A stretch of 64,000 bases of DNA from Podarcis cretensis. Its lineage: Eukaryota. This document shows, one piece after another, positions 11,480 through 63,627 of this stretch. Under the pieces are notes generated by a model that worked only from the letters and a program-made list of their open reading frames with translations, made no database searches and was not told where the DNA came from. The position numbers and the translations under genes were made by a program. The DNA is taken from contig OX638156.1 in NCBI GenBank assembly GCA_951804945.1, forward strand, positions 46,934,001 through 46,998,000. Reading direction: 5' to 3'. Every line of letters begins with the position of its first letter. Within the stretch, counting starts at the first letter, position 1.

Positions 11480-11869
11480 CCTTCAGTGGTAATCATGTCA
11501 ATTGCTTGAGTCATCTGGATGGTCCACCAGTCCAGCCAGGGCTTCAGCAGGAGGATCATTCATATCAGCCAGGTCATCCCCAAGGTCCATCTGGAAACCA
11601 ATTGGATTTACTAACTTCTGAGGGCATACCATCTCCATAGGCTGCCCAACTCTGCAGAGGAGGAAAGGTGCCTGGAGAAAGAGATGAAATCTTTATAGAC
11701 TACAGCAGCTCCCCCTCCCTGACCCTCAAGTCTCACCTGATTCTGTACTGAGTACCGAGTTGGGCATAGCTGGGTGAGACCAACTCCATCCTGCTCACCC
11801 ACCCAGGTTTCAGTGATACAGACCACATCAACCTCCTCATCCACAATCCAGAACCAAATCATGTTTAAG
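11480..11869 (-). mobile_element. L2 LINE apurinic-type endonuclease fragment (continues at 12421-12500)
   Basis: IVDEEVDVVCITETWV...RLEGQGGGAAVVYK carries the APE motifs ETW and GGG(V)A; the upstream part LLLLQNSRLALFKTSII lies beyond the 11870-12420 insert. Confidence 0.8.
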
Positions 11870-12420
11870 TGTAATGGACTGGCTGGATACAAAGGAGCGG
11901 GGGAGGGGAGAAGGCTCAGAGCCATGATATTGGTTGTGGGACAACAATCAGTTGTCAAAGAGAGAAGAGGGAGTAGACTGGGAGGAGGTGTTGGACACAG
12001 AAGTGGTAACAGGGTTTAGTGAGCAGGAAGAGTCTGTGGCAGAGAGCAGTCCAAATCAGAGGCAGAAGTGGAAGCTAGAGATGGGGGGGGGGGGATGTCA
12101 AGAGGCTGAGATGAGTCAGGCTCATGAGGAAGGCAGGGAGTCTCCCCTCTCCTCTGGTCTCCAAGAACCTGAAGAGGGTGGAACAAAGACAGACAAGACA
12201 AAGGAGCCTTAGATTTCTTGGGATGGAACTGGGGGGGGGGGTGACTTGGAGAGCTGTGGGAAGGTGAGGACCTTCAGTCCTCACAACTGTCTTATTGGGG
12301 GCAAGAGCAACTGGGATAGTTGCTGTGCTCAATAGGCCTGGCCCTCTGAACTATGAATAGTTAACTTCACTCACACCATGTGAGTTATTAGTGACCTGCT
12401 CCTGGATCCCACCCCTGACA
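11870..12420 (+). mobile_element. Possible solo LTR inserted in the L2 endonuclease
   Basis: TGTAA...TGACA termini, about 550 bp, purine-rich, splits collinear L2 EN sequence; TSD not resolved. Confidence 0.45.
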
Positions 12421-17793: not shown

Positions 17794-18032
17794 GTTGTTG
17801 TTGTTGTTTAGTCGTTTAGTCGTGTCCGACTCTTCGTGACCCCATGGACCAGAGAACGCCAGGCACTCCTGTCCTCCACTGCCCCCCGCAGCTTGGTCAG
17901 ACTCATGCTGGTAACCTCGAAAACACTATCCAACCATCTCGTCCTCTGTCGCCCCCTTCTCCTTGTGCCCTCCATCTTTCCCAACATCAGGGTCTTCTCC
18001 AGGGAGTCTTCTCTTCTCATGAGGTGGCCAAA
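17794..18032 (-). mobile_element. Bov-B (RTE) LINE 3' end, 5'-truncated
   Basis: FGHLMRREDSLEKTLMLGKMEGTRRRGRQRTRWLDSV...AWRSLVHGVTKSRTRLND is the Bov-B ORF C-terminus; (CAA)n tail. Confidence 0.95.
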
Positions 18033-23853: not shown

Positions 23854-25667
23854 AGCATCATCTTTAGGAGGCATAAAATATCACAACAAACTGGGCAACT
23901 AATATGGCCATCCAAGTTGCAAGAGTGTGAGTTGCAACTCATTCAGTGCCATGACTAACTTTACATACCTGCAATCTATTGTATCTTGCTTGAAATATGG
24001 CTAAATAACCTAAGTGATTGCTTTCACTTTTGATCCCACACATTTAAGGTGTTTTTTTTTAAAAAAAGAAAAGTTGTGTAAAACATAACTTTGTTTCTCA
24101 TTAGTTGGAAAGTGAGACAAAATCACTGATTGATGATCAAACTTATACTTGCACCTGTGCTAGCTTGAAAAATTATATGCAAACTCTTGATAGTGTGAGT
24201 AGACAATTAGACCAGCATCTCTGGCTAAAGAAGCTGGCTCTTCTAATCAGCTCCTAATTTCAATGTTCTACTTTTCTCTAGTGCTCCTGCCGTTAACATA
24301 TCATCTGCACCCAATTAGAGTTCATCAAAAGATCAAATGCAGATAATTAATGGATCCCATGTCAATGGGTTTGCGCTACAAAGTGAATATTTTAGTGTCT
24401 ATTCATGACATACTTCGTCATTGCACTGTAGCTTTCTTAAAGAAGAACTTTGTTTTGGAGCCCACTAAAAAAAATTAAAAATGGTTTCATTCTTGTCTTT
24501 CAATAAGGCTTATTGTACACTGGCTAGTGACAAACCAATTTATTTAAATTGGTTGGGGTTTACTTGAGAACAATTGGATTCCAGAACATATTTGGAATAT
24601 TTGTGTAAAACAGCATAATTTCTTAGCTGAAAACTGAACACAACAGAACAATAAAAATCATTCATCTTAAGACCAGTGATCCACTATACTCATCAGCCTG
24701 TCCCTGGAAGTAACTCCTATCAAACATGGTGCACAATTTCATGGATCGGGGTGGTGGGTCGGCTTCTTATGTCCTCCACTCCACACATGGCCCATGTTTG
24801 ACAGGTGGGTGGGACTACTACCTATTCATCTGCTGAGGTAACTATGACCCATTTTTGCCCACAACATTTGAAATCAATCTGTGTAGCCAAAGGCACAGCA
24901 TTTTGCAAGCTCTGATGATTTACACATTGTGGGCACTTACAAAGCACTGCACATGGGACTATGCAGATGCCACTGACAAGTAGTACCAGCAAACACCCTT
25001 CCCACCAAGCTATATCTTTACTTCTCCTACCACCGTTGTCATATATAGTGTCAAGTATACATGGTTTTGCCAAAATGGGCTTCTGGGCCAAAGTGGAGAC
25101 CTGATGGACCTAAGTAGGCCCAGGGTGTGGAGGTTCCATACTGCTGATATAGATAAACATATTTTGGATTCAGTGAGCATAATAAGGGGCTCTTCATACA
25201 TACCAATGTACGTTTGTAAAGCTCCCTCACCCAGCAGGTGTTGAGTTGTGATTGGGCAAGGATTTGCTTCAAATGTGAACAAACTCTGTGTGCATATATT
25301 GGTACTTTCATAGGGTCTCAGGAAGAGGGAGCCATGAACAGACCAGAGATTGAGTCTGGCTTACAACAGCTGGCTTCCACAGGCTGTTGAGGGCAAGAAA
25401 GTGACTAGGAAGTGTGTAGCCAGCCACTGCTACTTCTTCCTTGCAGACTGCCCAGCTGTGAAGGTAGGCAGGCCAGAAAGAGATTGTTGTGGCAGCAATG
25501 TGTCTAGGAGGATGACTGGTGACAAGGATAAAGCCTGGCAGGCAAGTGTGGCTTGGAGCATTGTATGTGACTGGTAATTGGACAGAGCTAAAGACAGGGA
25601 GGGAGAGATAGAGATGAAAAGTGAGAAACAGAGCAAAATAGATAATGGAAGAAAGTAGGAGCTCATG

Positions 25668-26090
25668 GACTTCCGGGTTGGCGCCCCCGGCAATTGCAGA
25701 GCTCCTCCGATAGGGAGGAACTTGCTCCGTGGAAAGTTGGGTCTGAACCGCCACGGCGAAGGCGGAGACCCATTGAAATCACAGGCGGAAGAAGCTTGTG
25801 AACCTGGGATTCGGCTGGCACCTTTTGTGCCTCCCCTACTCATGGGGAAACCCTGTTTTGGGGATCTGGAGTGACGTGGGGTGAGTGGCGTGGTGCTTTG
25901 AATCGACCGCTTCTTTCACGGAGTGAAGCCGCATTGCTGTTGCCGGAGAGCGCTGACTTTTTCTTGTGGACAACTGGATTTTAAATAACAACCCGTGAGT
26001 AAAAAGGAAATTTGGATCTTTAAAAATCTTAATTTGGCATCGAACAGGGAAGGTTCAAAACAGGAAGTCCGTCTTCCCCTTTTGTAAATA
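25668..26090 (+). promoter_or_regulatory. CpG-rich 5' UTR / putative internal promoter of the L1-derived element
   Basis: Abrupt rise in CpG density starting at the element boundary; ETS-like ACTTCCGG at the start and CAGGAAGT at 26061-26068; L1 elements are known to use internal Pol II promoters. Confidence 0.55.
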
Positions 26091-26576
26091 GACTGAAGCA
26101 AAGAGCTTACAAGTTAAGGTCTTGGAAAGCCTTATGTAAAGTATTAAACTTCCATCGATTGAAATTATTAGACCCCCCCTTGGAAGCAGGAGAAGAGGGG
26201 GGAAATTTTGGACTGTGTATCCTGCAGGAGAGAGTGATTAAAATTAAATTACCACTGCTCTGAACCTGGCAACGGGCTCCCAGTGATTGACGTTTCGGGA
26301 GAGTTCATTGACAGCGAAGAGAACGGATGTTGACAGTCAGTTAAATAAGAGAAATATATTGTTTCCATTGTCCGCTTCTGCGTTTAAAAGGGAGGAAAAG
26401 TATCTGAAAATTGAAACTATCTTTACTTTTTGATCTGTGTTGGAAAAGATTGATACAAGTGGAGACTGTTCCCCTCTAGAGGGAGCTTTTGAAACTGTTA
26501 CAAGAGTGGAGCTGGGAAATCCCCTGCTGCTTGATAAGAACTGTGAGAACTAGAGATTGACCTTGGATATTCAAGA

Positions 26577-27221
26577 ATGTCGACAGGAGAAGCCTTATGG
26601 ACTGCATTTTCTAAGATAAGCCACCTGTTGGAACAGCTTCATAAAAAGATGGATGCTATGACTACTAAAATTGACATTTTGGAACCAAAAGTGAGCACCA
26701 ATACAGAAATTATTCAGGATTTGGCACAGGAATCTATTTCAACAGGACAAATTGTTGAAAAGGAGAAGGAGAAAGTTGCTGTTGTCGAACCTAAAGTAAC
26801 ACAAGGGGGGGGCTTAGCCTTACAGAGGCAAATTGAGGACTACAAGTTGAGGCCCTTTATGACTGAGACTAGAAAAAGTCAGATTTTGAAGATCGGAGCC
26901 TGGCCTGGACTAGAAAAGGAAAGTTGGAAAGATCCCTCTATGCAGGGATTAACTGACTTTTGGAATATGGACTTGGGTCAGGAGGAGATTGGAGTTCTGG
27001 GGGCCTTTGGATTTGGAGGAATTTTGAAACATGCCCTGAAATACTTTATGGATCCTAGTTTTAATTATGGAAATCTGGCTGACCTGTCGAGAAGGAATAA
27101 AAGTATCGTTGGATTGGAGTTTCCCCGAGATCTGCTCTTTAGCATCAAAGAATATGAAGAAGACTGGCAGAAGGGACGTGGAAAAGAGTTAAGAGCCTCG
27201 GACATAAGATCTCCAGGTTGA
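26577..27221 (+). CDS. L1 ORF1p-like protein (coiled coil plus degenerate RRM start), 214 aa, element-encoded
   Basis: ATG-initiated intact ORF; heptad-like ISHLLEQLHKKMDAMTTKIDILEPKVSTNTEIIQDL; TETRKSQILKIGAWPGLEKE resembles the ORF1p junction motif E.R.R..NLRI.GIPE. Confidence 0.6.
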   Translation: MSTGEALWTAFSKISHLLEQLHKKMDAMTTKIDILEPKVSTNTEIIQDLAQESISTGQIVEKEKEKVAVVEPKVTQGGGLALQRQIEDYKLRPFMTETRKSQILKIGAWPGLEKESWKDPSMQGLTDFWNMDLGQEEIGVLGAFGFGGILKHALKYFMDPSFNYGNLADLSRRNKSIVGLEFPRDLLFSIKEYEEDWQKGRGKELRASDIRSPG

Positions 27222-29362
27222 TGGACTGTATGGAGTTGACGGAAATGGCTGGCAGGGTCCGAGACTGGGGAGAGGAGATGGTGGAAGAAGATTGGAAATT
27301 TAAAGTCTATATATAGAAATATTGTAAAATTAATGAGTGATAGAAAAACGTTGGAAGGAAATTTTATGGCTTTAGCTGAAATGCTATAAGGAGTTAAGCT
27401 TAAATAAGTATACTAATTTTAATGGAAATAAGATTAAAAATATGTTAAGACATTTATATGATAGAAAATAGAGAAAGATGGAAAGGAATTGCTGAAACAA
27501 TTAATGGAAGTGGAATACAAAGAGAGAGGTGAGAGGAGGTCAATGATACAAGGGAATGAAAGAGACTATGGAAAAGGTATGATGTATGTTTTTAAATTGT
27601 TTTTGTTTGGTTTGGTTTAGTTTATTGTGTTAGTTTAATGTTTTAAGGTTGTGTTTTGCATTGTTTATGTATTGTATTGTTTTTCTCTTTTTGTTCTTTT
27701 TTTTCTTTTGTCTTCTTTCTCCCTTTTCTTTTTTGTAAGCTTTAAAAGTAATAAATATTATTTTTTTAAAAAGAAAGAAAGTGGGAGCTCATGAGAGAGG
27801 GGCAGATGGAATAACGGAACTTCAAGCAATGTGTACTGGGGAGGGTCAATAAGACTGTGCCCAGATGAATTGAGTTTGCTGTTTAAGACTCTGAAACAGG
27901 AAGACTGTGTTAATTTGTTGGGCACTGATGAGCAAATTTATTGAGAGCTGTCAGCTCAGTGGTGAACTGCTAATTTGTTTGACTTTATGGATTTATGCAA
28001 TGTAGTGCTAAGCTAAAGTCATTTAGTGGAATGCTTGTTTTGCTGGCAAAATGTTTTGCACAAGTGGAACATGGTTGTGCAAGCACAGGTTGCTGTTAAC
28101 TTTGTTGCACAACTGATTGCACAGTCTGTGGTTCAAGTAGTTTCAACTAGCATAATCATTGTACTGGATTCCACAGTTATGAGACGTTAAATCTCACCTT
28201 TCCACTAGAGCACGAGCTCTTGCACTACTGGACAGAGAACGTTGAATACAGCCCCAAGTAACTTTCTGAAGCTGAACCAAGGAATTGCATGATGGCACAG
28301 ATCTCTACATCCTTTAGTTCATTACACACACATACAAACATACACTCCAGGTGAACCCTGAGATAAGGAAACACTCTGGGATCTGATAAACTCTTTTTAA
28401 AACCTTGTAGGAGGCTACTTTGCATGCTCATCAAACACATGGTCAGCAGATGGCATGGCTACAATAGAAGCACAGTTAACTTATGTGTCTCTGCAGTCCT
28501 CCCATTCATGCTTTGTGTGTGAAGGAATTTGTCTGAACATTGCCTGTGAAGTGATTGTTATGTGTGTACATTTAATCAGGACAGAACACATTTGATGGAA
28601 ACATATTTGAAAAAAAGCAACAAAAGAAATTTTTGATATTATATTACTTAGAAAATTGGAATTCAGAAGAAGAATACCCTTTTAAGTGCACTTCAGTAGA
28701 TAAATCAGAAATGTCTACCAAAACAATTCCAAACCCCAGGAAGCAAACTTAACAGGAAATGCAAATTAGTATACAGGAATAATGTACCACAATGAATTGG
28801 ACTAATATCTGTTCTCCAACCATCATTTCCAAATGTGTCCCCCCCCCTTGAATCTTTTACTACATCTTCTACACCAGAGCATGTGATTGGCATTCTGTAG
28901 CTGCATTAAAGGGTTCATTTACTAATTACAGAGCTAAATTGCATATGAGATGTGCAATTTTCACAACATATTTTGACAGGATTTGCTGATTTAAAAGTGA
29001 TTTGGAGGTTCCCCGCTCACCAATGACATGAGAGAGTTTTGAAAAGCAAACAGGTTACTCTTCAGTCCGTTCTCCTGACAGATGTCAACATCCATTACAT
29101 ACAATCTCATCTCTTGCTTGAGTGGAACACCTTTAACAAGAAGTGTAGTAGTGTGAAATTTGCTGATGTTGGGGAAATTAGTCCAGTTCAATCTTTGATT
29201 AATTAATACTCTGTAAATTCAGGTGGTACATGTAGCCATGGCCAAAGGTACTGGAATGAATATAAATTTGGAGGCAAATGTAATATTTTCAGACTGACTA
29301 GGAATAGTATGAATGCAGTGTTGCATAATTGCATACTCCACCCCCACCCCGTTACTCTATAG

Positions 29363-29491
29363 CAGGCATCCCCAAACTTGGCCCTCCAGCTGTTTTGGGA
29401 CTACAATTCCCACCATCCCTAATCCTGTTAGCTAGGGATGATGGGAGTTGTAGTCCCAAAACAGCTCGAGGGTTGAGTTTGGGGGTGCCTG
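29363..29491. mobile_element. hAT (Charlie-like) palindromic MITE, 129 bp
   Basis: Perfect 8-bp TSD CTCTATAG (29355-29362, 29492-29499); near-perfect fold-back, e.g. AGCTGTTTTGGGACTACAA / TTGTAGTCCCAAAACAGCT. Confidence 0.92.
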
Positions 29492-30274
29492 CTCTATAGA
29501 TTCCACAATCAGTCCATTTCAATCAGTCCATTTCCATTTTTCTCAGTTTCTCCTCTCCCCAGTAAATCCCACATACATTTGCATTTAAGATAAACAAAAC
29601 TCCAATGATCATAAAGGTAGATAAATACATTTTGATGTTTATTTCTTTTAATCTAAACATTTTTGTATGCACTTTTGCCCACTATATGCATTTTATACAC
29701 AATTTATTTTATTTGTGATAAGGCAAGCCTCACAAAACTATGTACAGAACAATGCTCCTCCATTAAAAGTATATACTTTACTCTTCTCACAAAAGTATAT
29801 GCTTTTAGAGCCAAATTATTTTGGTTACTGTTAAGTTTTTTTAAAAAAATATCTTTAATATTGTGGAAGCCCTGGGACTTTAGGGTGAAAGGTGTGAAAT
29901 AAAAAACAACAGCAGCAACAACAAACAGAATAGCAAAGGCAAATAAGAAAAAAAAGACAACTTTTCGAAAGCTAGATCTCAGCTTCCCCTCAGAACAGAA
30001 TGCTTCTTTTGGTGGGGTAAGGAGAGGCCATTTCTTCTGGAACTATGGAAGCTAGAAAATGGGCACCCCCTAGTCCCTAATGTCCCACACTCTCTTCTGA
30101 GCAAGAGGAACCTTACATAACTCTATGGCAGCAACTGAGGGAGAGAAAAGCCATTTCAGCTAGGAAGTAGGGGCTAGATAGTAGGCAGCCCTCCAGAGTG
30201 TTCAATTTCTTTCACCTTGTGGCAAGCACATTCTTGAGAAGACTACTGTCAGTTACAGCCTTTAATGGCCAAAC

Positions 30275-32207: not shown

Positions 32208-32607
32208 GTGAGAGCTGGACCATAAAGAAGGCTGATCTCCAAAGAATTGATGCTGTTGAACTATGGTGCTGGAGGAGGCTATTGAGAGTCCCATGGACTG
32301 CAAGAAGATCAAACCTATCCAAAGCCCTGAGTGCTCACTGGAAGGACAGATCGTGAAGCTGAGGCTCCAATACTTTGGCCACCTCATGAGAAGAGAAGAC
32401 TCCCTGGAAAAGACCCTGATGTTGGGAAAGATGGAGGGCACAAGGAGAAGGGAACGACAGAGGACGAGATGGTTGGATAGTGTTCTCGAAGCTACCAGCA
32501 TGGGTTTGACCAAACTGTGGGAGGCAGTGGAAGACAGGAGTGCCTGGCGCGCTCTGGTCCATGGGGTCACGAAGAGTCAAACACAATTAACGACTAAACG
32601 ACAACAA
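32208..32607 (+). mobile_element. Bov-B (RTE) LINE 3' end, 5'-truncated
   Basis: SPECSLEGQIVKLRLQYFGHLMRREDSLEKTLMLGKMEG...AWRALVHGVTKSQ; CAA tail; A-rich TSD-like ATAAAACAAAATAAA / ATAAAACCAAAATAAA. Confidence 0.95.
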
Positions 32608-33595
32608 TAAAACCAAAATAAAATTCAAATAGAACCACATCACCCCTTCCGATGTGACTGTTGCCCTTCTGAACAGGGAGAGGCAAATGATCATATTTGA
32701 AGCTGATCAGACTTTGGTAACCTTTTTTTGTGCTCCAAATAAAGGCCTTGCCCAACTTTGGAATATGAAGTTTTTCTTATGGAGCAACCTGTTCTTTTCT
32801 TATTCTAAGAGTGATTTGAGGAACCTCAGACTTGCAGTAGCACTTGTAAACGTTCTCCTGCCTTTGTTCAAACAAATTGGTGTGATTTTGCACAGTTCCT
32901 TTCCGGCCTGGTTTCTGCACTGCTTTACATGCATACCAAATTCCCCACATAATAAAACTACATAGGAAACTTTCTGTCAAAGGATTTTAAGTAACTCTGG
33001 ATTTCCTTTGAGGTCTGCTATAGGTGCCAATAACATTCCAAGCACAATCTGTTTTGTACTATTGATTTTCCCTATGATAAGACTCCTCTGTGTTGCAAAT
33101 CTGCCAATATTTGGGCACAGTAGAATAACTCCTTTCCTTTCCTGATAACGGTAGGGATGCATGCCTCTCTTCATGCCTGCAGTCTTTATTTAATGTATTT
33201 AATACATTTTTACCTTGCCTTTTGATTAGAATAAAATTGACATCTTTTTTTTAAAAAAAAAAACAATAATCATCATAGCAGTATAAAAACCAGGTAAGAG
33301 CATGTAATTAAAAATAAAATAAAATTAATGAACATGAGTAATTTAGTTTCATTAATTTCAGTGGGTCTCTCCTTCATTGGATGATAACAAAGACACACAA
33401 AAGGATAGGGTGATTCTGGAATGGTAATACCCAATTACATATAATTGCATATAAAAGTGGTACTGCTTCACTTTAGGTGGAGTTAAAGTACTTCTTGCAA
33501 AGGACATTTGAAATCTCAGTGATTTCCACAGTCAGTAAGTTACACATCATGTTGCTTTGATTTGAGGTCCCATAATAGTGTATAAGGACCTTTTA

Positions 33596-36600: not shown

Positions 36601-39054
36601 TACTTTTTGCCTCTTGTCGTGCCCACTTTTCCTGACTCCACCCATCACTGACATAAGGTCACTGAGGTTTAAAAAAAGGTTCCCTTTACCTGAAAGCAAG
36701 TGTGGGGGAGAGGATAGCAGAACACATTCCTACCCTGCCATACCTCACTCCACTCCACTTTTCTATTCATTTTTCTCCCAGCAAACCTCACTTTTTGGCA
36801 TTGGATCATGGCACCATAGTAAGATGGGAGTGGACAGAGCGGAGGTGGTACAAGTGGGATGCGGTGAGGCTGGGGTTTGATCCTGTTTCTTCCTCCATGT
36901 GCTCACTCTGTGGATACAGGAGTTCATATAAGTCTCAAAAACAGTGAATGCCTATGAGACTCAGTAAGCCTTGAATATCTCATATCTAATAGATGTGGTA
37001 TTCAAGATAGAAGACAAAAAAACATAAGGAGAAACAAGGACAATTGTCAGCTATGCCTTCACACACCAGCTCATAAATTGTATTATGATTGATTAGTGTT
37101 TCTGTACAATCATGACAGGAGTTTACTGTCAATCAAATATGTGATGGTCACATGGACCAATTGCACTTGAAAGCTACTTGATTAATTCAATAGCTATTTA
37201 GTGTAATTAAACTGAGCAGTATTTGAAAACAGACATATTTAAGAGTCCAGTATACAGCTCCTAAAATCAAATAATTCCACTAGCTTTTAAGGATAAATGC
37301 CTGCTTGCACCAGCTGGGATTATGATCTTAGATTATTATTATTTTTTAACATAAGACTGCTCCATGAAATTAATATTCAAAGACTCCACATCAGTTGATT
37401 GATTATTTCTGGAAATACTCAGTAATGCACTTTCTCAATTTACTGGAAATTTTAATTCTGTTACATATGACACTATGAAGAAAATTGGACTCCTTCCATA
37501 TTTATTCAGCCATGATTAATCTTGTGTTGAGTAATTTTTTTATATAATTTCCATTCCGTGAATATATTTATTAATTTACCTCCTGCCAATATGCTGCCTG
37601 AGGATGCCACTGTTTGGATTTTCTGTGCTTCCTAAGTAGAATTTGCATAATGGAATTAAGAGGTCTGTCCATGAGCATTTCGTTGTGGTATTTTGGACAG
37701 AGTATGTAGGTTGTAATTAGTGGCATCTGGCCTTCAGGCTCATTAACATGCAAATAGAATGACTACAGATTAGAAATGTTTTGCAGTTGCAACAATGTCT
37801 CATCAGTGTCCACATCAGATCTTTCTGTTGTGTTGCTGGGTTGTACTGGAGCTGTTTATATAAGGCTTGATGCTGGAGAAGTGAGTCAGAAGTAAAAGGC
37901 AATCATTGTGGATAAAAACATATTATTCTGGGAACTCTGAGAGCACTCCATTCAGTGTCCAGTTGAATCCATTGAAGTGTTGTCCCTTATGGTATCCTGA
38001 TTGGGTAGACATCTGAAACGAGTTCAACATGTTGATGCACCCAAAAGCACTGATACAAATTATTCCCCCCTCCCCGGCATGCAAAAATCTTATCTGTGGG
38101 CCAACAAGCTGAAGGGTTTCAATCATTGTTTACATCACTGCCTCTCGAGGCCATTCAACACAGTGAACAAGTCCTTTGGCTTTCCATGAGCATGTGTACC
38201 TCCTATTCTAGTTAGTTATTTCTTAGTTGTGTGGTAGCTGTGGAGCCCATACTCTGTTCCATTGCCAAACACAGCACTTAGTCAACCCATGGAGGTGGGA
38301 TTCAAATTATGATTCAAAATTCACCTTACATAATCCAGCATGCCAAAACCCGACACATATCCTTAGAACATGAAAGGGATCTACTGCCCCCACAATTTCA
38401 TATCCACTATATGCTGGAACCAAGATGATTTGGATCTCCCTAGCAGCTTGTGCAAAGGACACCCTACTCTTCAACCCAGGGGCTTGGAAAGAGCATCATA
38501 CCTAGGCTCTTCCTGTGGCACAAGTCTTCACCAATCTTCCCTGGCACCAAGAATAAGGAAATCAAGTACACCAAGCCAGGAGCTACTGTGAGAAAATGGA
38601 GCACTTTGCTAGCAGCATATGGCCTTCGCTTCACCAAACTCTGCTCCTATAGACAAGATTCTAACTGTATTTGGCTGTTTTGTTCATATTTAAGCTGTAC
38701 AACCAAGCAGGAAGTAGAATTCTAGCATCTGTGCATAGAGTGCTAGCCTATGCATGTGCTGGCTTCCATGCAATCTGGAATCCTGAATGACTGGGCTTCT
38801 GGATGCCACCGAAGGCTGTATATGACCAGCAGGAAATCTCTGGTCCATTGGCCTAATTAACCTTGCAAGGCCTCCCTTTTTGGCCTTTGTGGCCACTTGG
38901 CAAAGCCACATCCACCTCCCCTACACCTGATGCTGTGTCAGATGTCAAGTATAGCGCAGGAAAAGATGTGGCAGGACTGAAGGTGGGTTTGCAGACATAA
39001 CACCCTGTTCAAAGCACAATGTACACAGCTTAGAAAGCAGTATAGATCAGTGTA

Positions 39055-39296
39055 CAGTGGTACCTCAGGTTAAGAACTTAATTCGTTCTGGAGGTTCATT
39101 CTTAACCTGAAAATGTTCTTAACCTGAGGTACCACTTTAGGTAATGGTGCCTCCCGCTGCCACTGCACCGCTGCCACACAATTTCTGTTCTCATCCTGAA
39201 GCAAAGTTCTTAACCCGAGGTACTATTTATGGGTTAGTGGAGTCTGTAACCTGAAGCATCTGTAACCTGAAGCGTCTGTAACCTGAGCTACCACTG
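39055..39296. mobile_element. Tc1/mariner (pogo/Tigger-like) MITE, 242 bp
   Basis: TA|CAGTGGTACCTCAGGTTA ... TAACCTGAGCTACCACTG|TA; reverse-orientation sister of 57275-57516. Confidence 0.92.
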
Positions 39297-42200
39297 TACA
39301 TGCAAAAGCTCTCTCCCACTTGAATGTATGCACACATACCAATAGGATCAGCTATCCAGTGTGGCTCCTCCTCCCCTTCATGTTTACAGCTTAGCCCTGA
39401 GTATAATGGTGTATATGAGAGTTTCTGATACTTCTCCCAGGAACAGAGCCTCCACTAATATCTCAGGAAGGGGGATGTTTACAAGGCCTATTAAGAAACA
39501 TCTTAGTTGCTACTTGGCTGGTGCTAATTCAAATATGCAATTATTGACATGTGGCTATAGCACTTCAGTTTTCCCATGGCTACTCCTGAAAACTATTTTC
39601 CATCCCCTTGAAATTTTTCAGATGTTGCTGCCAGAGCAAGAACCTTTAACATTGTGCTTCACTTTTCACATTAGTTGACATTTCATTGACAACATTAAGC
39701 CCTGCTCAGTTGACCAAAACTGGGGTAGTGAAGGTAAGGATAGAGGGTCAGGATTGTTAGCCACAAGGCCTGGCCTCTGTACTATATGTGTCGAACACAG
39801 CATAAAGTGTAGATGGAAAGAAGACAAGCCAGAAAAATCATGCCAGACTAAGCATAATTCAGTTTCCCTTTCAGGAGATGAGTTGCAATGACTAGGTAGG
39901 ACAAAGCTGTTCGTATCAAGGACTTTGCATTCTGTATAAGGGTCACTGTAAATCTGCATTTGAAGCATTATGCAAAATTGGCAAGGTTTGGATTCACTCC
40001 ACAAAAGTGGCAAAATACACTGAGTTTTCCTACTCATTTTTGGAAAACAGATGAAAAATACACATACATAGATCTGATAGTCTATTGCCATTAACACAGT
40101 TGAACGGCCCTAATTTCTCAATAGGATGATTCAATATTCATTTTTTAATTTCTGCATTTACACATAATATCTCTCAAGAGACACTTAACAGATTCTGCTG
40201 TTGCAGTTTTAATGAGAACTATCAAAGGTTACTATGAGATGATGATCTATACTTAATTCATAGACATCCCCAGACATTTTTGTAATTCAGAGGCTGTTTG
40301 GATTCTTTGAGATAAGTTTTTAAAAATTGTTTTCAAACATTTGTCCTCATTTGAACTGTATAAATATCTGTACTAATCCTCTTTCTTCTTATTGTTTAGA
40401 TATTTGAGGCAAAATTACCATCAAAATAAGCACAAGTCTGAAATAGAAAAATCAATTTAAAAAATGCCAATTATTAGGAAATAAATGGAGACAAAAAAAA
40501 CTGAATAAGGATAACTCTTTGATATGTGTATAGGCGAGAGAGAGAAAAAAATAAACAGGTACATTATACTTTGAACTTGCAGAAGACAAGTACAGTTAGC
40601 ATGTGTCTTATATGGGGGTTTGGTTTCAGGGGTATCATGTACATGCAAAAATCACATATAGTCAAAATTATCATACCCTTGGAGCCACCCCATGGCTAGT
40701 CTGCCTGCCTTCTATAAGGCAGCCAGTGAGGCAGAGAGAGATAGAGATAACATCCTTTCCAGTCATAGAAACAGTGTGGCAGTGGGCAGACCTTGCCCAA
40801 GAAGCAAGTCTGAGAGCTTCAAAGCTCTTTTTATATCTGGTAACCCAACAAAGACTCAGCACAAAAGAGCTTTTAAGTTCTCAGGCTTGCTTCCTAGGCA
40901 AGGTCTGCTTGGCATGCCAGCTCTGGGACTGATAGGGAAAATCTTACTCCCATGAGATCTTGCAGGAGCATCCCCCCATTGGCTCTGTATAGTTGAAACT
41001 GCACAGGTTAAATGCACGTAGGATGGGGGCATACTGTATTCATTATACTGAATACCTAACAAATTGATCCAATCACAACAACAACAATTGGCAGAATGGA
41101 AGACATCCTGCCTGCTAGTCTGATTCTGAGCACACTTCAAAATTCTTTTAAGATGCTCACTTTTAAAACTTCTGTGCCACTTGAAATCTAAATTATTGCA
41201 AGATGTTGCACACCTCTACTTCTGAACATGGTTCCCTTCCTGCAGAGGGTAGAGCTGGGCAATGCTGACTGTGAAGAATGTATAAAGACATGAATCACAT
41301 TGGTTGCTCTTACCCTTTTTGCTCCTGGTGCTGCCTATCATGGGTATTCCCCTGAGAAGTTGTCTATAGGAGAAATGTGGCTCTTGGACTGCAAAAAAGG
41401 TTCCTCACCCCTGATCTATATCTTCTTTTTGTAAACCACCCAGGGAATGCACTTGGAAAGTGATAGAAAAAGAATGTAATAACAGTGAAATGAATTAAGC
41501 ACTTGTTTACAAAGGCAAGACAGAAAGAAGAGGGAATACACTGAAGACCTTCAGATACCTTATGGCCCACCTCTGTCACTGACAACCTCTGAGGGGACTC
41601 ATCTCCAAATGGTGCAATTAAAATGGATCGAGGTGCTAGCCCACCAAATCCAGTTTTAAGAAGAAACAGACTGTTTGCATTAGGCAAGTGGCAGAGGTAT
41701 GCCTTGAAAAGTGTGCAATGAGTAAATGAGAAGACATATAAACATATCACAATCAAATCATGATGAATGCTCATTGTCATCTAACCACACTATAAGCAAA
41801 TGTTCAATAAAGGTCAGCTATAATCTCACTTCTGTGTAAGCTTTGTGCAAGCAAGACTGGATTAGTGCTCAATACATAGATTTCTAGAGGAGCTGCCTGA
41901 CTACTGGCTCCCTAGGATGCCTGTTTAGAGAATACTGCAACACGATGATCTCCAGGGGGCTTTCCAGGACGTGTGACTGACCACAGAATGGCCTGCAGAG
42001 CAGTGAAAAGCTTCAGAGGGATGATGATTACAGGAGAGCAGTGAAGGATTTTAAAGAAAGTTTAAAAACTGCAGTAAAGTTTTCAAAATCCTCCTTTACA
42101 TGTGCTCCGCCCCCCCCCCCCCCATGTCCTTTGATGTGCTCCAGTCCAATTCCTGGTCAGCTCCATTTTTTGAAATCCCCTGGAGATTTTCTTGCTATTG

Positions 42201-48771: not shown

Positions 48772-49776
48772 CCGCAGAACCTCTATTTACGTCCCACTCT
48801 ACTTAGGCCGAAAGTGAGAAGTGGCAGAAAGTGAGGAGGAATTAAAGAACCTTTTAATAAGGGTGAAAGAGGAGAGTGCAAAATATGGTCTGAAGCTCAA
48901 CATCAAAAAAACGAAGATCATGGCCACTGGTCCCATCACCTCCTGGCAGATAGAAGCGGAAGAAATGGAGGTAGTGAGATATTTTACTTTCTTGGGCTCC
49001 ATGATCACTGCAGATGGTGATAGCAGTCACGAAATTAAAAGACACCTGCTCCTTGGGAGAAAGGCGATGGCAAACCTAGACAGCATCTTAAAAATCAGAG
49101 ACATCACCTTACCAACAAAGGTCCGCATAGTTAAAGCCATGGTTTTCCCAGTAGTGATGTATGGAAGTAAGAGCTGGACCATAAAGAAGGCTGATCGCCA
49201 AAGAATTGATGCTTTTGAATTATGGTGCTGGAGGAGACTCTTGAGAGTCCCATGGACTGCAAGAAGATCAAACCTCTCCATTCTTAAGGAAATCAGCCCT
49301 GAGTGCTCACTGGAAGGACAGATTGTGTAGCTGAGGCTCCAATACTTTGGCCACCTCATGAGAAGAGAAGACTCCCTGGAAAAGACCCTGATGCTGGGAA
49401 AGATGGAGAGCACAAGGAGAAGGGGACGACAGAGGACGAGTGTTCTCGAAGCTACAAACCAAACTGCAGGAGGCAGTGGAAGACAGGAGTGCCTGGCGTG
49501 CTCTGGTCCATGGGGTCACGAAGAGTCGGACACAACTAAACAACTAAACAACAACTGCTTAGGCCCTTTCCAAGTTGTGACCGTGGCAAACCCAGAAGTA
49601 AACACCAGGTTTGCCACGATTCATGCACGTGCAGAAGCAGCTGCCCCTGTCTGCACATGCACAGAAGCGAGCTGCCGCCAAATGTGTCTGTGCACAACAG
49701 CGCTTCTACCAGCAACCCGTTTCACCATAAGAACGGGCCTCCGGAAAGATTGTGGTCGTCAGTAGAGGTTCCACTG
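48772..49776. mobile_element. pogo/Tigger-like MITE split by a Bov-B insertion
   Basis: Left TA|CCGCAGAACCTCTATT and right AGTAGAGGTTCCACTG|TA are imperfect TIRs; about 250 bp remain after removing the Bov-B and one TSD. Confidence 0.7.
48810..49554 (+). mobile_element. Bov-B (RTE) LINE, 5'-truncated within the RT domain
   Basis: MAESEEELKNLLIRVKEESAKYGLKLNIKKTKIMA...FTFLGSMITADGDSSHEIKR...KAMVFPVVMYG...DAFELWCWRRLLRVPWTARRSN; stop at 49328-49330; 11-bp TSD CT(A/G)CTTAGGCC; CAA tail. Confidence 0.97.
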
Positions 49777-55090: not shown

Positions 55091-55098
55091 TTATAGGG

Positions 55099-55600
55099 CT
55101 TTATAGGTCATAGCCAGCACTTTGAATTGTGCCCAGAAACACACCAGTAGCCAGCAGAGGTGTTCTAGGAAGGGAGTCAGACGCTCCCTATAACCTGCCC
55201 CAGTCAGCAATCTGGCTGCAGCTCTTGGAGCCAGTTGAAGTTTCTGAGCACTTTTCAAAGACCGGCCCACACAGAGTGTGTTACAGTAATCCAAATGGGA
55301 TGTAACTAAGACGTGTGTCACTATGGCCAAATCAGACATATCTAGAAATGGGCGCACACCAGCTTTAACTGTACAAATGTGCTCTTGGTTACTGTCAAGA
55401 CCTGGGCATACAGTCTCAAGGCTGAGTCCAGGAACATGCCCAAACTGTGAATCTATTTCTTCAGGATGAGTGTTGCCCCATCCATCAAAGGCTGAATCCC
55501 TATTCCCTGTTCTGCTTTCTAGCTGACCAAGAGCACCTCGGTCTTGTCTGCATTTTATTTCAGTTTGTTTACCCTCATCCAGTCCATTACTAATCAGTTT
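55099..55600 (-). mobile_element. L2 LINE ORF2 3' fragment
   Basis: RPFLDMSDLAIVTHVLVTSHLDYCNTLCVG...KLQLAPRAAARLLTG...LCWLLVCFWAQFKVLAMTYKAL; upstream QTKMQTRPRCSW region corresponds to the KLNPDKTE motif. Confidence 0.85.
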
Positions 55601-57274
55601 AGAACAGATACAGCTTTAGTTTATTCACTGTCTACCCCAACACTCAAACGCCTGCTGCAGAGTAAATTTCAAGTCAATCTGTTTTCACAAACCCTTTTTG
55701 CACCTGGGTTTTTAGTTTGCTGCTAAATGTATTAAATAAAGTAGTCAGCTCAATTAAATATATCTAGCCTCAATCATTATTAACCAGGGCTAAAATATTG
55801 TACACACTTACCTAAAAATATGTTCCAGTGGGACTTGCTTCCACACACAGAATAGTACTGCTAAACACTGAGAAACAACAAAAAAGGGGGGGCTATGGTT
55901 TAATTTTTTATTTTGACTACTGCCTCTTTAGTCGCACAACATTCCATTAAGAAACACTTATTTTTTTTAATTAACTGTAAAATAAAATGCAGTAAACAAG
56001 CCCAATATTTTTCAGCATGAGATTTGCAGTGTTAGATTTATCTTTTATGTGCCGTAGGGAAAATATGTTAACTTGCTTTTCTGGAGAAAGCTTGCTAAAT
56101 GTTTGATAATGAAATTAATATTTTGTTTTCCTTTTCTCCTTAATCTTGAAGTATGAGTAAACCTCTGGTCAAGGGAACAAATGAGGTTGCTTCATTCAAT
56201 TTATTACTGTAAATATTTTATGTTAAAAGTGCAATTTGTGTTTATATATGACTATCCACTTAAGGAACACATATTGCTGATGAAAACAATAATCTACCAC
56301 CAAAAAAAAAAAAAAATTACAGAGAACATTATCGTAATGAAAAGCTAAAAACAAGCCCAATCAATAGATCAGCAACAGTTAAGTACTATGGTGCCACATG
56401 GCTGTTTCTTGAGTACTATGCCATATAATAACTCAAAGAACTAAAACACACCAAATATATGGTATTCTAAGCCATTGTCCATATTGGCTGTGTGAGAGAG
56501 ATTGAATATTTATGTTTCTGCCTTATATTTATCTCATTTATTGACTACACTTCCATTCTGCCTGTTTGTCAAAGCACTTAAGGAGCCTAATATTTTATAT
56601 TAATGGTTCAGGAGACTCTTCATCAACCTGGTGCCCTCTAGATGCTTTGGACTATAGCCCTCAATAGCCCTAGTCAGCACAGTTCTGCAAGGTGGGGCAG
56701 ATGGGAACTGTAATCCAAAAATCTGGTGGGGACCAGGTTGTTGAAGTCTGGAAAAAACATGATGAAAACAGGAATGAAAGGGAAGGGAAGGGAACTATAC
56801 ACATTCACACACACCTTATGATCACACACCTGGAATGAATACGCATTGCATGATTATAGACGAGCACTCACAAATTCATTAATTGAACACAGCACACATG
56901 GTGCATGAGACTAGGGCACAGTCTGCCCCATACAATTAAAAGTGTATAGTAACATTTTAAACAGTCATGGCTCCCCTGAAAGAATCCTAGTTGGTTAAGA
57001 AAGCTGAGAGTTGATGGGAGACCCTATTCTCCTCACAGAGCTACAATTCCAAGAGTGGTTTAATCCTGAATCTCTATTCCCATGGAATTCTAATGATTGC
57101 AGCTCTGTGGAGTCCACAAATGGGAAACTACTACTGAGAATGCCCTGTCACAAACCAGTGCCATCTGGTGCTGTTCTTGGAGTCCTAGGTGAACATTTAA
57201 AAACAGTATCTGAACAGCAGCCTGAACACATACCCAGATCACGCAGTCACATTTTTCTCCACTATAGTGAAGTA

Positions 57275-57516
57275 CAGTGGTACCTCGGGTTACATACGCT
57301 TCAGGTTACATACGCTTCAGGTTACAGACTCTGCTAACCCAGAAATAGTGCTTCAGGTTAAGAACTTTGCTTCAGGATGAGAACAGAAATCGTGTGGCAG
57401 CGGCGCAGCGGCAGCAGGAGGCCCCATTAGCTAAAGTGGTGCTTCAGGTTAAGAACAGTTTCAGGTTAAGTACGGACCTCTGGAACGAATTAAGTACTTA
57501 ACCCGAGGTACCACTG
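57275..57516. mobile_element. Tc1/mariner (pogo/Tigger-like) MITE, 242 bp
   Basis: TA|CAGTGGTACCTCGGGTTA ... TAACCCGAGGTACCACTG|TA with perfect 18-bp TIRs. Confidence 0.93.
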
Positions 57517-58483
57517 TACTATTTAAATTATAGTAATTATGCCTACATTTATATCATTACATTTCAATTAATATATGCACATTTTAATGTAAATCTGCAT
57601 CCTCTTTTGTCCTTCTTTGCTTTGAGAAGAGGTGATGTGTAAGTGATCATCCAACAAGCTGTTGAATTTTATCCTCTTTATAACATGGCTGTATTCACTA
57701 GTGGTTAAAATAAAGAAGAAGAAAAACAAGGGTAAGTAAGGCCCCCTCTGTAATTCCATACATATCTTCAGCTGGAGAAAACAAAGAGCTGTGTTTGACC
57801 TTTCATCTAACTTCTCTGTTTCCAGCAAGTTGTCCTGACAGTTTCTATCATTTTCACATGAAAACCCCAAATCCACAATTCACTACAAGCATATTAGAGC
57901 AATCTAAGACATTTTGAATTTTACTGAAGCCATTACAGGCAAGTTATTTTTCAGAGTGTGGCACATATTGTAAAGTAACACTTCCTCTTTGATTGCAAAG
58001 GACTGTAAACAAAGCCACAAGGTTCTCAGCTCACTGCCAAAAACATTCTTATGCGAAATATCATTCCCCAATTTTGCAATAAAGATTACATTGAGTAAAG
58101 AAAATATGCCTACAAATTGGTTTAGTGTAATATATACTTTTAATATCCGGAAGAAAATACAAAGAGCAGAATGGATTTTCAAAACAATGCAGTAATTCTT
58201 CAGTGTATGAATGTCAAACTACTTAATCCTACCGGATTTTATAAACAAAACAAAAAAGCATGTAACAAATTATTGTATTCAGTTATGTTAATGAAAAAAA
58301 GTTTCAAGGGAGATTCCACCCCCTTCAAATCAAACCTCCCATAATTCTGTTCAGCAGCTTGCTAATGAATATGAATCACTGAGGGCAATGGAGCCAGATG
58401 TAGTATCGGGAGAAAAAAAACATTTCTGTATTAAAGTTTCATAAAATATTATGGTGAAAATGCCCAAATTGTAGGTCAGAGTC

Positions 58484-60439: not shown

Positions 60440-60877
60440 CTGTATTTTGACGCACCAGACCATAAGACGCACCTAGTTTTTGGAGGAGGAAAACAAGAAA
60501 AAAAAATATTCTGAATCCCAGAAGCCAGAACTATAAGAAGGATCTGCCTTCTGGGATAGCCTCTTGCTATTCTGGCTTCTGGAATAGTCGCGCGAAGCCT
60601 CTTCAGGGCAGCGGGATGAAGGCTCCCCCTGCCCTCAAGAGGCTTCGCACGACTAAGCCAGAAGCCAGGGCAGCAAGATGGATCGCTGCGCAGTGAAGGC
60701 TCCTCCAAGAGCCGTGCTCCCTTTAAAGAGGGGGGGAAAGCCCCACATGCTCCACACGGCTCTTTAAAGGGAGCACTGAGCAGAGCCTCCCACCTGCATT
60801 CGCTCCATAAGATGCACACACATTTCCCCTTACTTTTTAGGAGGGGAAAAGTGTGTCTTATAGAGCAAAAAATACGG
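60440..60877. mobile_element. Tc2-like MITE, 438 bp, longer sister of 367-625
   Basis: TA|CTGTATTTT ... TCTTATAGAGCAAAAAATACGG|TA; shares CTGAATCCCAGAAGCCAGAA and GCATTCGCTCCATAAGA blocks (reverse complement) with 367-625. Confidence 0.85.
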
Positions 60878-63627
60878 TATACACATTTTGTGTTTTTGTG
60901 TTTTTTTAAATTTGTGCTTGCCAAAAATTGGCAGAAAAGAATTGTTTGACACATGTGAACCCCAATGAGTGAATGACTACACTTTATCCCTCTGGGAGAG
61001 ACTATCTAATGTTGCCCCAGAAATGTCTTATTTCTATACATCTTTAGTTGCATTTAGCTAACCCTGTTGGAAAAGGTGTGGAGAAATTTCTGGGCAAATG
61101 TAGCACTGAAAGAGTAAAATCCACTTCTGAAAAGAAAACAGAATAAGCTTATAAACTGCAAATGAATGACTTGCCTTCAAAGGTGAGTTGAGAGTGTAAT
61201 TTCTAATTAACTTTATACTGTATTTCTGAAAGGTAAACTTATTGCACTATTGTGCAGATGTGGGATGGAGTGATTCGAGAGACAACCTCATGGACACAAA
61301 AACTCTAAATATTATTATTTTATTGTGAAGTGCTTATTACATTTATCCCCTTATGCAGTTCCTAATCAAATTTACTATATGCTCTTCTATTAAAAAATAT
61401 TAAATATGTCCTGTTTTGCCCCACCTCCATAACAGTGTTCCCAATCAAATAATTGGGTTGTAAGAGATTTTTTTTTAAGCATAAAAATCCCCCAAGGAAG
61501 CCATAAAACATTCCATTTGATTATCTTTACAAATCTTATTTGATTGCTTTAATAATGGAGTCCCATGATGCCATTGTTTCAGAACTTTCCTGCCAGGTAC
61601 AAAGCAATTACTATGTATGTAACAACCCAACGTGTGTGTTTTTCAACTTACAATGAGAAATATATCTTTCAATTCATGATTGTGTTGTAGATGGAGCTAT
61701 TATGTATGGCTGCAATTATAACACCCATGCTGGGAGTATTATATTATAAAACAGTTCCGATAGTCAAGAGGTGCCTGCTTATATTCCAAAGGCAGTGCTG
61801 AAGAAATAAAAGCAATTTTGGGCAGCCTGATTCTATGAGTTGATTTCATCTTCTGGAAAGAAAACAAAGTAATTTTCACTAGTGATCTCTCTGAAATTCT
61901 CATCAAAATGTATCCCCAGATTTGGGAGTTCTGAATTACTTGGTCTTATTTCTGAAATGAAACTGTTGCACTAAGGATGACAAAACTGCCAATTTCAGTT
62001 TCTCTAACTTCCACACACATCCTGTCTTACATTAATTTGTCCCATTTGCACAACAATGTTTGTTATTTAAAAAAATGTATGGAATTCTGCACACACTTTT
62101 TGCATGCATTTTTAACATTCACACTATTAAGCAATTTTAACTAATGTACACTTCTGATTTTTTTAACATTTCTGTCTAATAGAATGCAATATTAATGTTA
62201 TTTTCACTATTATATGCATTTATAGCACATTTTTGCTTGAAGTCTGTAGTAAAATTCAGGGAAGTGCAAATTTCAGTAGATATCACTGTTTCAGTTTGCA
62301 GATTGGCTTGGTAAGTGTGAATTGAACTGTGTATATTTCTCCCACTCCTCCTAAATATGAATCTACATTTATATTGTGTTATACTTTCAGATTCTAGACA
62401 AAGTATGCACAGTTTGCCCAAGCTTTCAGTTAAGGCTGGTTCAAATTTCCAAAAATGGGAACTGATGTCCTTCTCCTTCTTTTTGCTTTCGGAAATTTCT
62501 ATCACTTGTCTTGCTGAGTATTACCAGGAAGGGTAGCTATGGAAAGAGTCTTTTGCCATATCCCACTAGTCAAATATCCCAGGATGCATTGGGAGAGTTG
62601 TGCTGCATGCTAGTGCTTCTACTGGGTGATGAAAATAAAGACTCGGTTTCTTGTTACTCCCTTATGAGCCTCACCAACTCAGGGGACAACCAATGATACT
62701 TCTGCAAAGGATCTCAGGGTTTTGGGGGTCCCTAAGCTACCCTGAACCTAAGTTGCTCAGGGCTTTGTTCAAAGACCTTGAACCTGGCTCAGAAGTAGCT
62801 GCTGGCCAGTGCATATATTTTAACAATGATGTCATGTGGTGTTAAACATGCCCCCATCAGCAATCTAGCCATCACATTTTGCACCAGCTGGAGCTTTCAA
62901 ACCAGGCTGGAGGGTAGTCCCACATGCCACACATGGACTACAATGGCCCCATATGAACTGAGTGAACACTTCTCAGAACACTCCTCAGTGCAAGAACTGC
63001 ATGACAAATATGTAAGACTTCCACAGGTGATGTGTTCATGTGGAAAGGATTCCCTGATATATAGAAGCTTGGAAACATCTGTGTTAGTGCAAAGCTTTGC
63101 CATCTCAAAGATTTGGGGCTTAGAACATAATATATAGGGAATTCTGAAGAGGCTGTTTGGAAGATGATACATTTCACGTATTCAGACTAATCCAAATACA
63201 TGAGCCCAAAGGTCTCTGACTAAGCTGTATTGAGTAATCTATGCCTGCCAGGACTGACCCAGGCTATTAGAAAAAAAGTGTTTCAGAACAACAAAGCAAG
63301 AAAGAGAAACTAAATTATAAGCCCTCCTCTTGATCTTTGGTGACAGATCATTCATTATATAGCCTGTGGGGCGGAGATGAATCATTTTATGATAATCACT
63401 TTATGCAACAATTTAAAAATGGTTATATATCAAACACAGGCAGCTTCCCTAATTCCATTTGCAGGGGATGAATTCTAGGAGAACATTTCCCAGGTGTGTG
63501 CACGAGTGAGTGAGAGATTGATTGATTGAGAGAGAGATGGGGGGGGGGTTGAAAATATGGATAGTGGCTTGGGCAGAGGGAGAAGCCGCACATTTACCTT
63601 TGTGTAAGGAATTATTGTAATTGTTCG

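Follow-up and report, generated by a model that had tools for sequence, protein, structure and literature searches.

The forward strand of the 64-kb window, the whole stretch of DNA that was analysed, carries a short element with L1-type ends, a long leader and a single intact gene, here called mini-ORF1. The following features were assigned:

25649..25667, + strand: 5' target-site duplication (TSD), 19 bp, by sequence match
25668..25676, + strand: L1 5'-terminal motif GACTTCCGG, identical over all 9 bases to the start of the lizard clade-1 L1 consensus (PMC5381506)
25668..26576, + strand: leader, 909 nt, with two CpG patches and three tiny upstream ORFs
26577..27221, + strand: mini-ORF1, 214 aa, intact, an internally deleted L1 ORF1p
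27215..27340, + strand: candidate remnant of the ORF2 end (last ~40 codons, presumed identity), in a frame other than that of mini-ORF1
27341..27767, + strand: 3' UTR with a T-rich tract and AATAAA at 27750-27755
27768..27774, + strand: A-rich end
27775..27793, + strand: 3' TSD, 19 bp, one mismatch to the 5' copy

Ends and overall structure

The unit between the TSDs comprises 2,107 nt (25668-27774). Most of the structure described in the original prediction was recovered. The claimed 19-bp TSD with one mismatch corresponds to 18/19 identical bases; when all 19-mers in the window were compared, two pairs with at most one mismatch and a spacing of 300-8,000 nt were found, and the second is an A-rich microsatellite, not a TSD of the element. 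The CpG-rich 5' end and leader of about 900 bp were likewise confirmed, with 20 CpGs in 25674-25994 and 7 in 26273-26381, as were the single intact 214-aa ORF and the T-rich 3' UTR with its AATAAA (55-65% T across 27568-27767). An A-rich end had also been described and is present, but measures merely 7 nt. Finally, coding sequence for endonuclease (EN) and RT is absent as claimed: the element holds only one sense-strand open frame of at least 130 codons, no frame in it encodes EN or RT, and tblastn with the ORF2-like part of P0008 returned nothing significant. Having no intact ORF2 with EN and RT, the element is not an autonomous L1, and, without a copying enzyme of its own, it likely borrows that of full LINE-1s.

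The motif GACTTCCGG opens the element and is unique in the window when both strands are scanned. The three upstream ORFs of the leader have 10, 1 and 5 codons, and by analogy with L1 biology the leader is likely an internal Pol II promoter. Segment 27215..27340 likely resembles the last ~40 codons of L1 ORF2, its presumed origin, and its first bases provide the stop codon of mini-ORF1. Frame 27158-27313 had no match among longer proteins (37 candidates) or in Pfam, reached a best score of 0.75 in the Atlas and did not match the supplement sequences of PMC5381506 (~400 letters each). The 3' UTR is akin in length and T-richness to the lizard L1 3' UTRs described in passages of that paper. The nick site is purine-rich and not TT/AAAA. 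No second copy was found within the 64-kb window and no empty site among the 15 contig joints listed of 54, while an Rfam search gave one match only, at chance level (E 0.22). A search listed no RNA data set containing the element, a result that does not bear on its expression.

Origin and deletions of mini-ORF1

An exhaustive phmmer search with mini-ORF1 yielded 14 matches, 5 of the full ORF1p type (three of them named Podarcis proteins and a fourth in a cluster with a P. muralis entry), and 9 of the mini type (5 whole, 4 broken or partial). A word-index protein search gave 1 match among 505 candidates and a profile search of proteins 3 matches, none new, among 8,000 scored; every score in an Atlas search with P0002 was under 0.9, and metagenome scans gave no matches. 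Comparison of the mini and full ORF1p profiles resulted in a probability of 99 (E 4.9e-18, 197 columns), with parts of all three ORF1p domains present in order in mini-ORF1. The full protein in turn resembles human ORF1p: the model of P0014 matched it with a Foldseek E of 4.1e-8, and the two RRMs superimposed with a Z of 12.6 and an rmsd of 2.2 Å over 92 residues. Pfam returned no Transposase_22 match, even for the full 362-aa relative, and by missing even full lacertid ORF1p it leaves an annotation gap. In trees (P0009 excluded; P0007, P0008 and P0011 trimmed to their ORF1 parts), all the mini proteins are set apart by a 100/100 branch. The end branch of the window protein is very short (0.04-0.08), which may reflect its use as query for all rows. 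Type II ORF1p homology (coiled coil, RRM, CTD), the 5' terminus and leader, and the TSD, poly(A) signal and A-rich tail mark the element as an L1 derivative. Judged from the alignments and predicted models, mini-ORF1 derives from lacertid L1 ORF1p.

Alignment to the full proteins resolved mini-ORF1 into these parts:

26595..26873, + strand: coiled-coil remnant, 93/114 residues aligned to P0014 52-165
26874..27020, + strand: first half of the RRM (strand 1, helix 1, strand 2), 52/93 residues retained
27020..27021, + strand: RRM deletion junction, in-frame, 40 codons, common to all mini proteins covering the site
27021..27176, + strand: CTD remnant, 48/65 residues retained
27150..27151, + strand: CTD deletion junction, in-frame, 17 codons
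27150..27218, + strand: C-terminal 23-aa motif, common to mini proteins

Neither the RRM nor the CTD is intact, and mini-ORF1 is not a complete ORF1p. Compared with full ORF1p, it is without the N-terminal region, 41/93 RRM residues, 17/65 CTD residues and the tail; the 40 aa deleted from the RRM comprise strands 3 and 4 and helix 2. The CTD segment deleted here is still present in some other copies, including P0010, and loose contig ends, translated by hand, lie at 27150/27151 in all four genomic runs. The deleted RRM segment matched 26087-26170 weakly (E 0.13-1.5), which was taken as chance. Residues 7-39 form regular hydrophobic heptads. Based on a 9-sequence alignment, the predicted model is poor (mean pLDDT 41.7), moderate only at the N-terminal helix, with no strands and no confident fold past residue 47. 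With RRM strands 3 and 4, helix 2, the N-terminal region and some of the CTD gone, the product is predicted not to fold an RRM or to package RNA alone as ORF1p does.

The original prediction was supported in linking the ORF to L1 ORF1p, whereas its description of an ORF1-like gene that is kept has to be replaced by that of an internally deleted ORF, and its suggestion that the element may supply its own divergent ORF1p is not what the remaining protein leads us to expect. The same deletions bear on a classical HAL1 (half-L1), in which the 214-aa protein would be a divergent working ORF1p packaging its own RNA in cis. Such an element would have the same architecture, as outlined in parts of PMC5753468 and PMC3627910, and would account for the ordered remnants of three domains and the maintained frame. 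However, RNA binding by human ORF1p requires both RRM and CTD, according to passages of PMC5940361, while here RRM strands 3 and 4 and helix 2 are deleted and the model is without strands, which makes this reading improbable.

Copies of the element and the open frame

Copies beyond the window were sought in contigs (short unitigs) of four genomic runs, X1, X4, X8 and X11. Relative to the flank, summed contig depth, which does not equal copy number, was raised in 18/18 element bins, to at least 1,213x in X1, 1,313x in X4, 577x in X8 and 146x in X11 (where the 5' flank is without contig), and depth rises stepwise at the element ends. The RRM junction is spanned by diverged X1 records 6 and 7 (11/125 and 17/136 letters differ; depth 187 and 850 versus 44-60 in the flank), the CTD junction by diverged X4 records 21 and 22, and the stop/tail junction by diverged X4 record 23. 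Depth, junction-spanning contigs and the common protein gap identify a multi-copy family with a common deleted structure and, together with the ORF1p profile match, bear out the predicted multi-copy, L1-derived, non-autonomous family. The window copy itself is common to three organisms and still open, at a flank divergence of about 2% or less. Other copies are represented by contigs or proteins, none of which showed a whole unit with its own TSD. Single-copy internal deletions also occur within the family (joints 25964-27298 and 26119-27725).

Loss of the central part of one full-length L1 after its insertion would agree with the absence of a second copy from the window and with the single-copy deletions known in the family. 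Diverged contigs nevertheless span the junctions, and the RRM gap and C-terminal end are common to proteins only 26-46% identical, so that we regard such an event as extremely improbable. It is very likely that the element belongs to a high-copy, L1-derived, HAL1-like non-autonomous lizard family without EN/RT and with a deleted ORF1. We infer that the mini relatives would themselves be 2-kb non-autonomous elements. On this account the family formed when almost the whole of ORF2 was deleted, and it shrank stepwise: the RRM gap is common to the mini proteins that cover the site, and the CTD gap is confined to some subfamilies.

Five whole mini relatives (199-215 aa, 26-46% identity), all with the RRM gap, are still open, although the protein library contains open frames only, which is an ascertainment bias. 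In a neutral simulation, the frame stayed open at 26-46% identity in 0-3 of 3,000 runs per setting. Relatives and simulation support a putative coding frame kept open by selection. At the protein level, a kept and fast-evolving ORF1 frame agrees with HAL1. LIVMF residues occupy 8-9/10 heptad a/d positions in P0002, P0004, P0005, P0006 and P0012, where 4.6-5.6/10 are expected (P 0.01-0.08 for each); this signal is missing in P0003 and P0010 (P 0.4-0.75) and confined to one clade, the five minis not being independent. Pairwise identity among mini proteins is 19-46% (mean 32%), compared with a mean of 57% among full ORF1p, and such low values also fit weak protein constraint. Minis differ by 18 distinct in-frame indels, some possibly alignment noise. 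The C-terminal 23 aa are more conserved than the remainder in 3/6 minis (Fisher P 0.002, 0.03 and 0.048), the excess not being significant in the other three; this motif adjoins the junction and may instead act as a signal at the RNA level. Going from full to mini sequences, A>G changes outnumber the reverse in 15/15 pairs, some by only 1-3. A-to-G editing drift was considered and dropped, window-to-mini counts being nearly balanced.

For the same non-autonomous family, selection might act on translation, with a nearly inert peptide: an open frame would stabilise the RNA by avoiding an early stop and leaving the 3' UTR short, and would keep it on ribosomes for capturing new ORF2p. Extreme amino-acid divergence and 18 in-frame indels in a frame that is yet open would suit this, as would the absence of a confident fold past residue 47 and the loss of half the RRM, part of the CTD and the basic N-terminal region, which human ORF1p needs (passages of PMC5940361). 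On the other hand, the heptad core exceeds the stop-free neutral expectation in the five related minis, and the C-terminal 23 aa are better conserved in 3/6, though possibly as an RNA-level signal; we consider selection on translation a minority possibility. Host selection, with the mini-ORF as a dominant-negative L1 suppressor or partly domesticated gene (cf. L1TD1), is very unlikely. Truncated coiled-coil ORF1p does repress L1 in trans in human cells, as parts of PMC5605252 report, and the open window copy is common to three organisms. A 642-nt unselected frame, however, can easily survive at this flank divergence, and repetition of hundreds-fold or more, together with several diverged subfamilies, suggests that selection acts on the element itself.

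Possible mobilisation and comparison with known systems

On balance, we lean slightly towards an account in which ORF2p of full L1s, working in trans, replicates this complete copy and mini-ORF1p acts via its coiled coil. Transcription from the L1-type leader would yield a polyadenylated 2.1-kb RNA whose single ORF would be held open by selection. Mini-ORF1p might then co-trimerise with helper full ORF1p near its own mRNA, drawing the helper RNP and ORF2p onto the element RNA, as proposals for HAL1 and HeT-A and human ORF1p heterotrimers would suggest. Target-primed reverse transcription, presumably by helper ORF2p, would leave the 19-bp TSD. For the coiled-coil co-assembly step, which is drawn from analogy, the case is evenly balanced. 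Passages of PMC5605252 and PMC10588031 describe truncated or divergent ORF1p acting in trans via the coiled coil, and the proteins of HAL1, HeT-A and Ag-Sponge have been suggested to multimerise (PMC5786205, in part); against this, in human cells truncated ORF1p inhibits L1 instead of assisting it (PMC5605252, in part). More tentatively, the lizard elements may be a lacertid 'defective-interfering' L1 clan, in which a coiled-coil decoy without RNA binding enters helper ORF1p trimers, redirects RNP and ORF2p, and also dampens autonomous L1. If so, an arms race of one parasite living on another would be recorded in the subfamilies, which are 26-46% identical and of which a single genome apparently contains at least two, and these natural mutants would reveal which part of ORF1p is required in cis.

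Why ORF1-only elements retain their gene, and what ORF1p does in cis, are open questions; the ORF1p of HAL1 has been assumed necessary as an RNA chaperone. A successful family with an open frame from which almost half the RRM is gone allows three candidate roles to be told apart: packaging of RNA, co-assembly through the coiled coil, and the act of translation. Searches of the published papers found no description of a lizard HAL1 or lizard ORF1-only L1, and protein-coding non-autonomous L1s would extend to squamates.

Mammalian HAL1 (Smit 1999; Bao and Jurka 2010; via parts of PMC5753468, PMC3627910 and PMC5786205) is, like this element, L1-derived and non-autonomous, with only an ORF1-derived protein, a long-kept frame, L1 ends and a TSD. 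Unlike HAL1, the present element resides in a lacertid lizard and stems from a lizard clade-1-type L1, its ORF1 has lost the N-terminal region, 41/93 RRM residues and some of the CTD, and it keeps a likely ORF2-tail remnant and has relatives that are only 19-46% identical. Lizard clade 1 L1 (Anolis; PMC5381506, in part) shares the 5' motif, the long leader with two CpG patches and a T-rich 3' UTR of similar length, whereas the element is 2.1 kb instead of 6.2-6.7 kb, has no EN or RT, and encodes an ORF1 of 214 instead of ~350 aa. Podarcis L1 ORF1p (P0007, P0008, P0011, P0014/P0018) is homologous to mini-ORF1 at 30-42% identity. HeT-A of Drosophila and Ag-Sponge of Anopheles, classed as 'ORF1-present bipartite non-autonomous LINEs' in the available text of PMC5786205, similarly combine one ORF1-type gene with a borrowed reverse transcriptase, and their proteins are proposed to multimerise with those of the helper; they belong, however, to the Jockey and CR1 clades rather than L1, and target specificity is not evident here. 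Human SpIREs and truncated-ORF1 L1 loci, as covered by parts of PMC5860796 and PMC5605252, are also internally shortened, with defective ORF1p, and trans-dependent or trans-acting. These are called evolutionary dead ends, whereas the lizard family has amplified and diversified into subfamilies.

Anatomy of the element

The insert (25668-27774) is bracketed by 19-bp repeats at 25649-25667 and 27775-27793 which differ at one base, as the original prediction described for its target-site duplication. Pairs of this similarity spaced 300-8,000 nt apart occur only twice in the whole window, the second being a microsatellite. All other predicted parts were likewise present: a CpG-rich 5' end, a leader of about 900 bp, a 214-aa ORF, a T-rich 3' UTR, AATAAA and an A-rich end.

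Features of the element (window positions)
5' end of insert: GACTTCCGG, unique in the window; insert length 2,107 nt
CpG patches: 20 CpGs in the first 330 nt of the insert; 7 CpGs at 26273-26381
Leader: 909 nt, upstream of the ORF
26577-27221: window ORF, 214 aa
3' region: T-rich; AATAAA at 27750; A-rich end of 7 nt

An open-frame scan and tblastn with the ORF2-like part of P0008, a protein of the full lacertid ORF1p type, revealed no endonuclease or reverse-transcriptase frame in the element, as had been claimed. According to PMC5381506, lizard clade-1 L1s share the element's first nine bases, carry a pair of CpG islands and end in 3' UTRs rich in T; its supplement table lists lengths of 6.2-6.7 kb and 3' UTRs of 194-570 nt.

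A second frame from ~27215, comprising some 40 codons with one stop, sits 427 nt ahead of the tail and gives the mini-ORF its stop codon. We take this frame to resemble the end of a squamate L1 ORF2p. The likely ORF1-to-tail junction at 27213-27218 seems to us to read like exon-side splice consensus, which is what a spliced L1 would leave. Searches of longer proteins, Pfam, the Atlas and the supplement sequences of PMC5381506 yielded no match confirming L1 ORF2p identity.

Elsewhere in the window, a decayed LINE piece at 11614-12015 (minus strand) weakly matches an endonuclease (E 0.02). Another at 55094-55615 (minus strand) resembles an L2/CR1-type ORF2 end. Three mutually related LINE fragments (48818-49555, 32208-32610 and 17795-18032; 84-91% alike), one frame of which weakly matches RVT_1 (E 6e-4), look like Bov-B/RTE 3' ends. 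Short palindromic or paired repeats (60449-60879 and 365-605; 29355-29499; 40786-40908; 39052-39299 and 57272-57519) look like non-autonomous DNA transposons.

A reduced ORF1p and its relatives

An exhaustive protein search with the window ORF returned 14 matches, five of ORF1p type (274-422 aa) and nine mini; the named relatives come from Podarcis, which makes a lacertid host likely. Profile comparison aligned the ORF with the full ORF1p group across 197 columns (E 4.9e-18), and the structure model of P0014, a full relative of 362 aa, comprises coiled coil, RRM and CTD with human L1 ORF1p as top matches (Foldseek E 4.1e-8; RRM Z 12.6), in line with the expected similarity to L1 ORF1p. Measured against full ORF1p, the window ORF has lost an N-terminal region of ~50 residues, 14-21 residues of the coiled coil, 41 of the 93 that make up the RRM (strands 3 and 4 together with helix 2), 17 of the 65 in the CTD, and the tail, every loss being in frame. 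The claim that an ORF1-like gene is kept stands for descent but is not supported for those missing parts. The ORF's own structure model is poor past residue 47 (pLDDT 41.7; shallow alignment). The full lacertid ORF1p P0013 and P0014 gave no Pfam match to Transposase_22 at E 0.1 though the P0014 fold matches human ORF1p, which points to an annotation blind spot.

Whole mini proteins number five (P0002, P0004, P0005, P0010 and P0012; 199-215 aa), P0004 having three near-identical cluster mates, while four of the nine mini matches are broken or partial. The comparison of the mini relatives is at the protein level. The RRM gap is common to the minis and a C-terminal motif to the whole ones. In an unrooted tree, eight minis including the window ORF are split from five full ORF1p by a 100/100 branch, with a mean identity of 32% among minis versus 57% among full ORF1p.

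A separate observation concerns the 'TRIM39-like' model P0011 (XP_028576234.1, Podarcis muralis), in which RING and B-box domains are linked to the end of the coiled coil, the RRM, the CTD and the tail of an L1 ORF1p whose frame is open. This may be an annotation artefact from an intronic L1 or a genuine TRIM-ORF1 fusion, which could then serve as an L1 trap.

Family status in public sequencing runs

From the 24 public runs listed, four were taken, each from a different organism and study, and all their contigs were compared with 24900-28500 at 85% likeness; 11,787, 12,068, 3,593 and 1,665 contigs aligned. Across all 18 element bins, summed contig depth was at least 1,213, 1,313, 577 and 146 times that of the flank, values that give no copy number because overlapping contigs are added together. 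The 5' flank was at single-copy level, the depth step coincided with the element ends, and depth peaked in the leader and at the 3' end. Contigs 7-13% different from the window copy (X1-6, X1-7 and X4-21 to X4-23, among the longest records listed) span the RRM, CTD and stop-to-tail junctions, so the deleted structure is common to other copies. The element belongs to a repeated family; depth and diverged junction-spanning contigs bear out the prediction of a multi-copy family instead of a lone deleted L1. The window insertion itself was found in three of the four runs, where contigs run from either flank into the element; the most distant of these shows 14 differences in 797 letters and 13 in 640. 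Neither an empty site nor a second whole copy was seen among the longest contig records listed for the four runs.

The CTD segment absent from the window ORF is retained in P0010. In each of the four runs, loose ends at 27150/27151 translate in frame (by hand) as this segment; shrinkage therefore proceeded in steps. In run X1, a loose end situated before 26979 translates to ten residues, eight matching P0002 and three the window ORF, and a P0002-like subfamily thus seems to coexist with the window subfamily in one genome.

Depth in the leader (25747-26230) exceeded that of the ORF bin with the lowest coverage (26594-26714) several-fold, at 16,794x versus 1,213x in X1, the opposite of the usual 5' truncation pattern. 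The pattern suggests that in many elements the leader is conserved and the middle has diverged or been lost by deletion; fragmented contigs may exaggerate the excess. At 26105, loose ends in three runs indicate that leaders of other copies go on differently past that point.

Selection, mechanism and relation to HAL1

When point changes alone were simulated down to 26-46% identity, only 0-3 of 3,000 runs per setting left the frame of the window ORF free of stops; ~7-9 stops were expected. The relatives used here come from a protein library that contains open frames only, an ascertainment bias that alone would require thousands of dead lineages per survivor. Together, the rare simulated survival and the implausibility of this bias argue that, judged from sequence, the open frame is under selection. 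Heptad core positions carry LIVMF in 8-9 of 10 cases in five related minis (~5 expected; P 0.01-0.08 each, not independent), an excess not seen in P0003 or P0010, and the last 23 residues are more conserved than the remainder in three of six minis. Moderate support thus exists for selection on the protein itself; the main alternative, that selection acts on translation alone and not on the protein, is the less likely reading.

The leader would drive transcription of element RNA, mini-ORF1 would be translated, and ORF2p of an autonomous L1 would copy the element in trans, a scheme we regard as highly probable. Mini-ORF1p is predicted to be unable to package RNA because human ORF1p binds RNA via RRM plus CTD, and the proposed supply of an own divergent ORF1p is hard to sustain with 41 of 93 RRM residues deleted. 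As a best guess with roughly even chances, it could enter the ORF1p trimers of the helper by way of its coiled coil. RNA binding by human ORF1p is described in PMC5940361, truncated or divergent human ORF1p are reported to join ORF1p trimers by coiled coil (PMC5605252, PMC10588031), and joining of helper proteins is proposed for HAL1-type proteins (PMC5786205).

The literature searched contained no description of a lizard HAL1 or ORF1-only L1, and earlier cataloguing in Repbase or Dfam is possible. The element would work like HAL1, the non-autonomous half-L1 of mammals. However, a whole ORF1p is a HAL1 feature which the element lacks, and we therefore set it beside HAL1 as a variant and not as a member.
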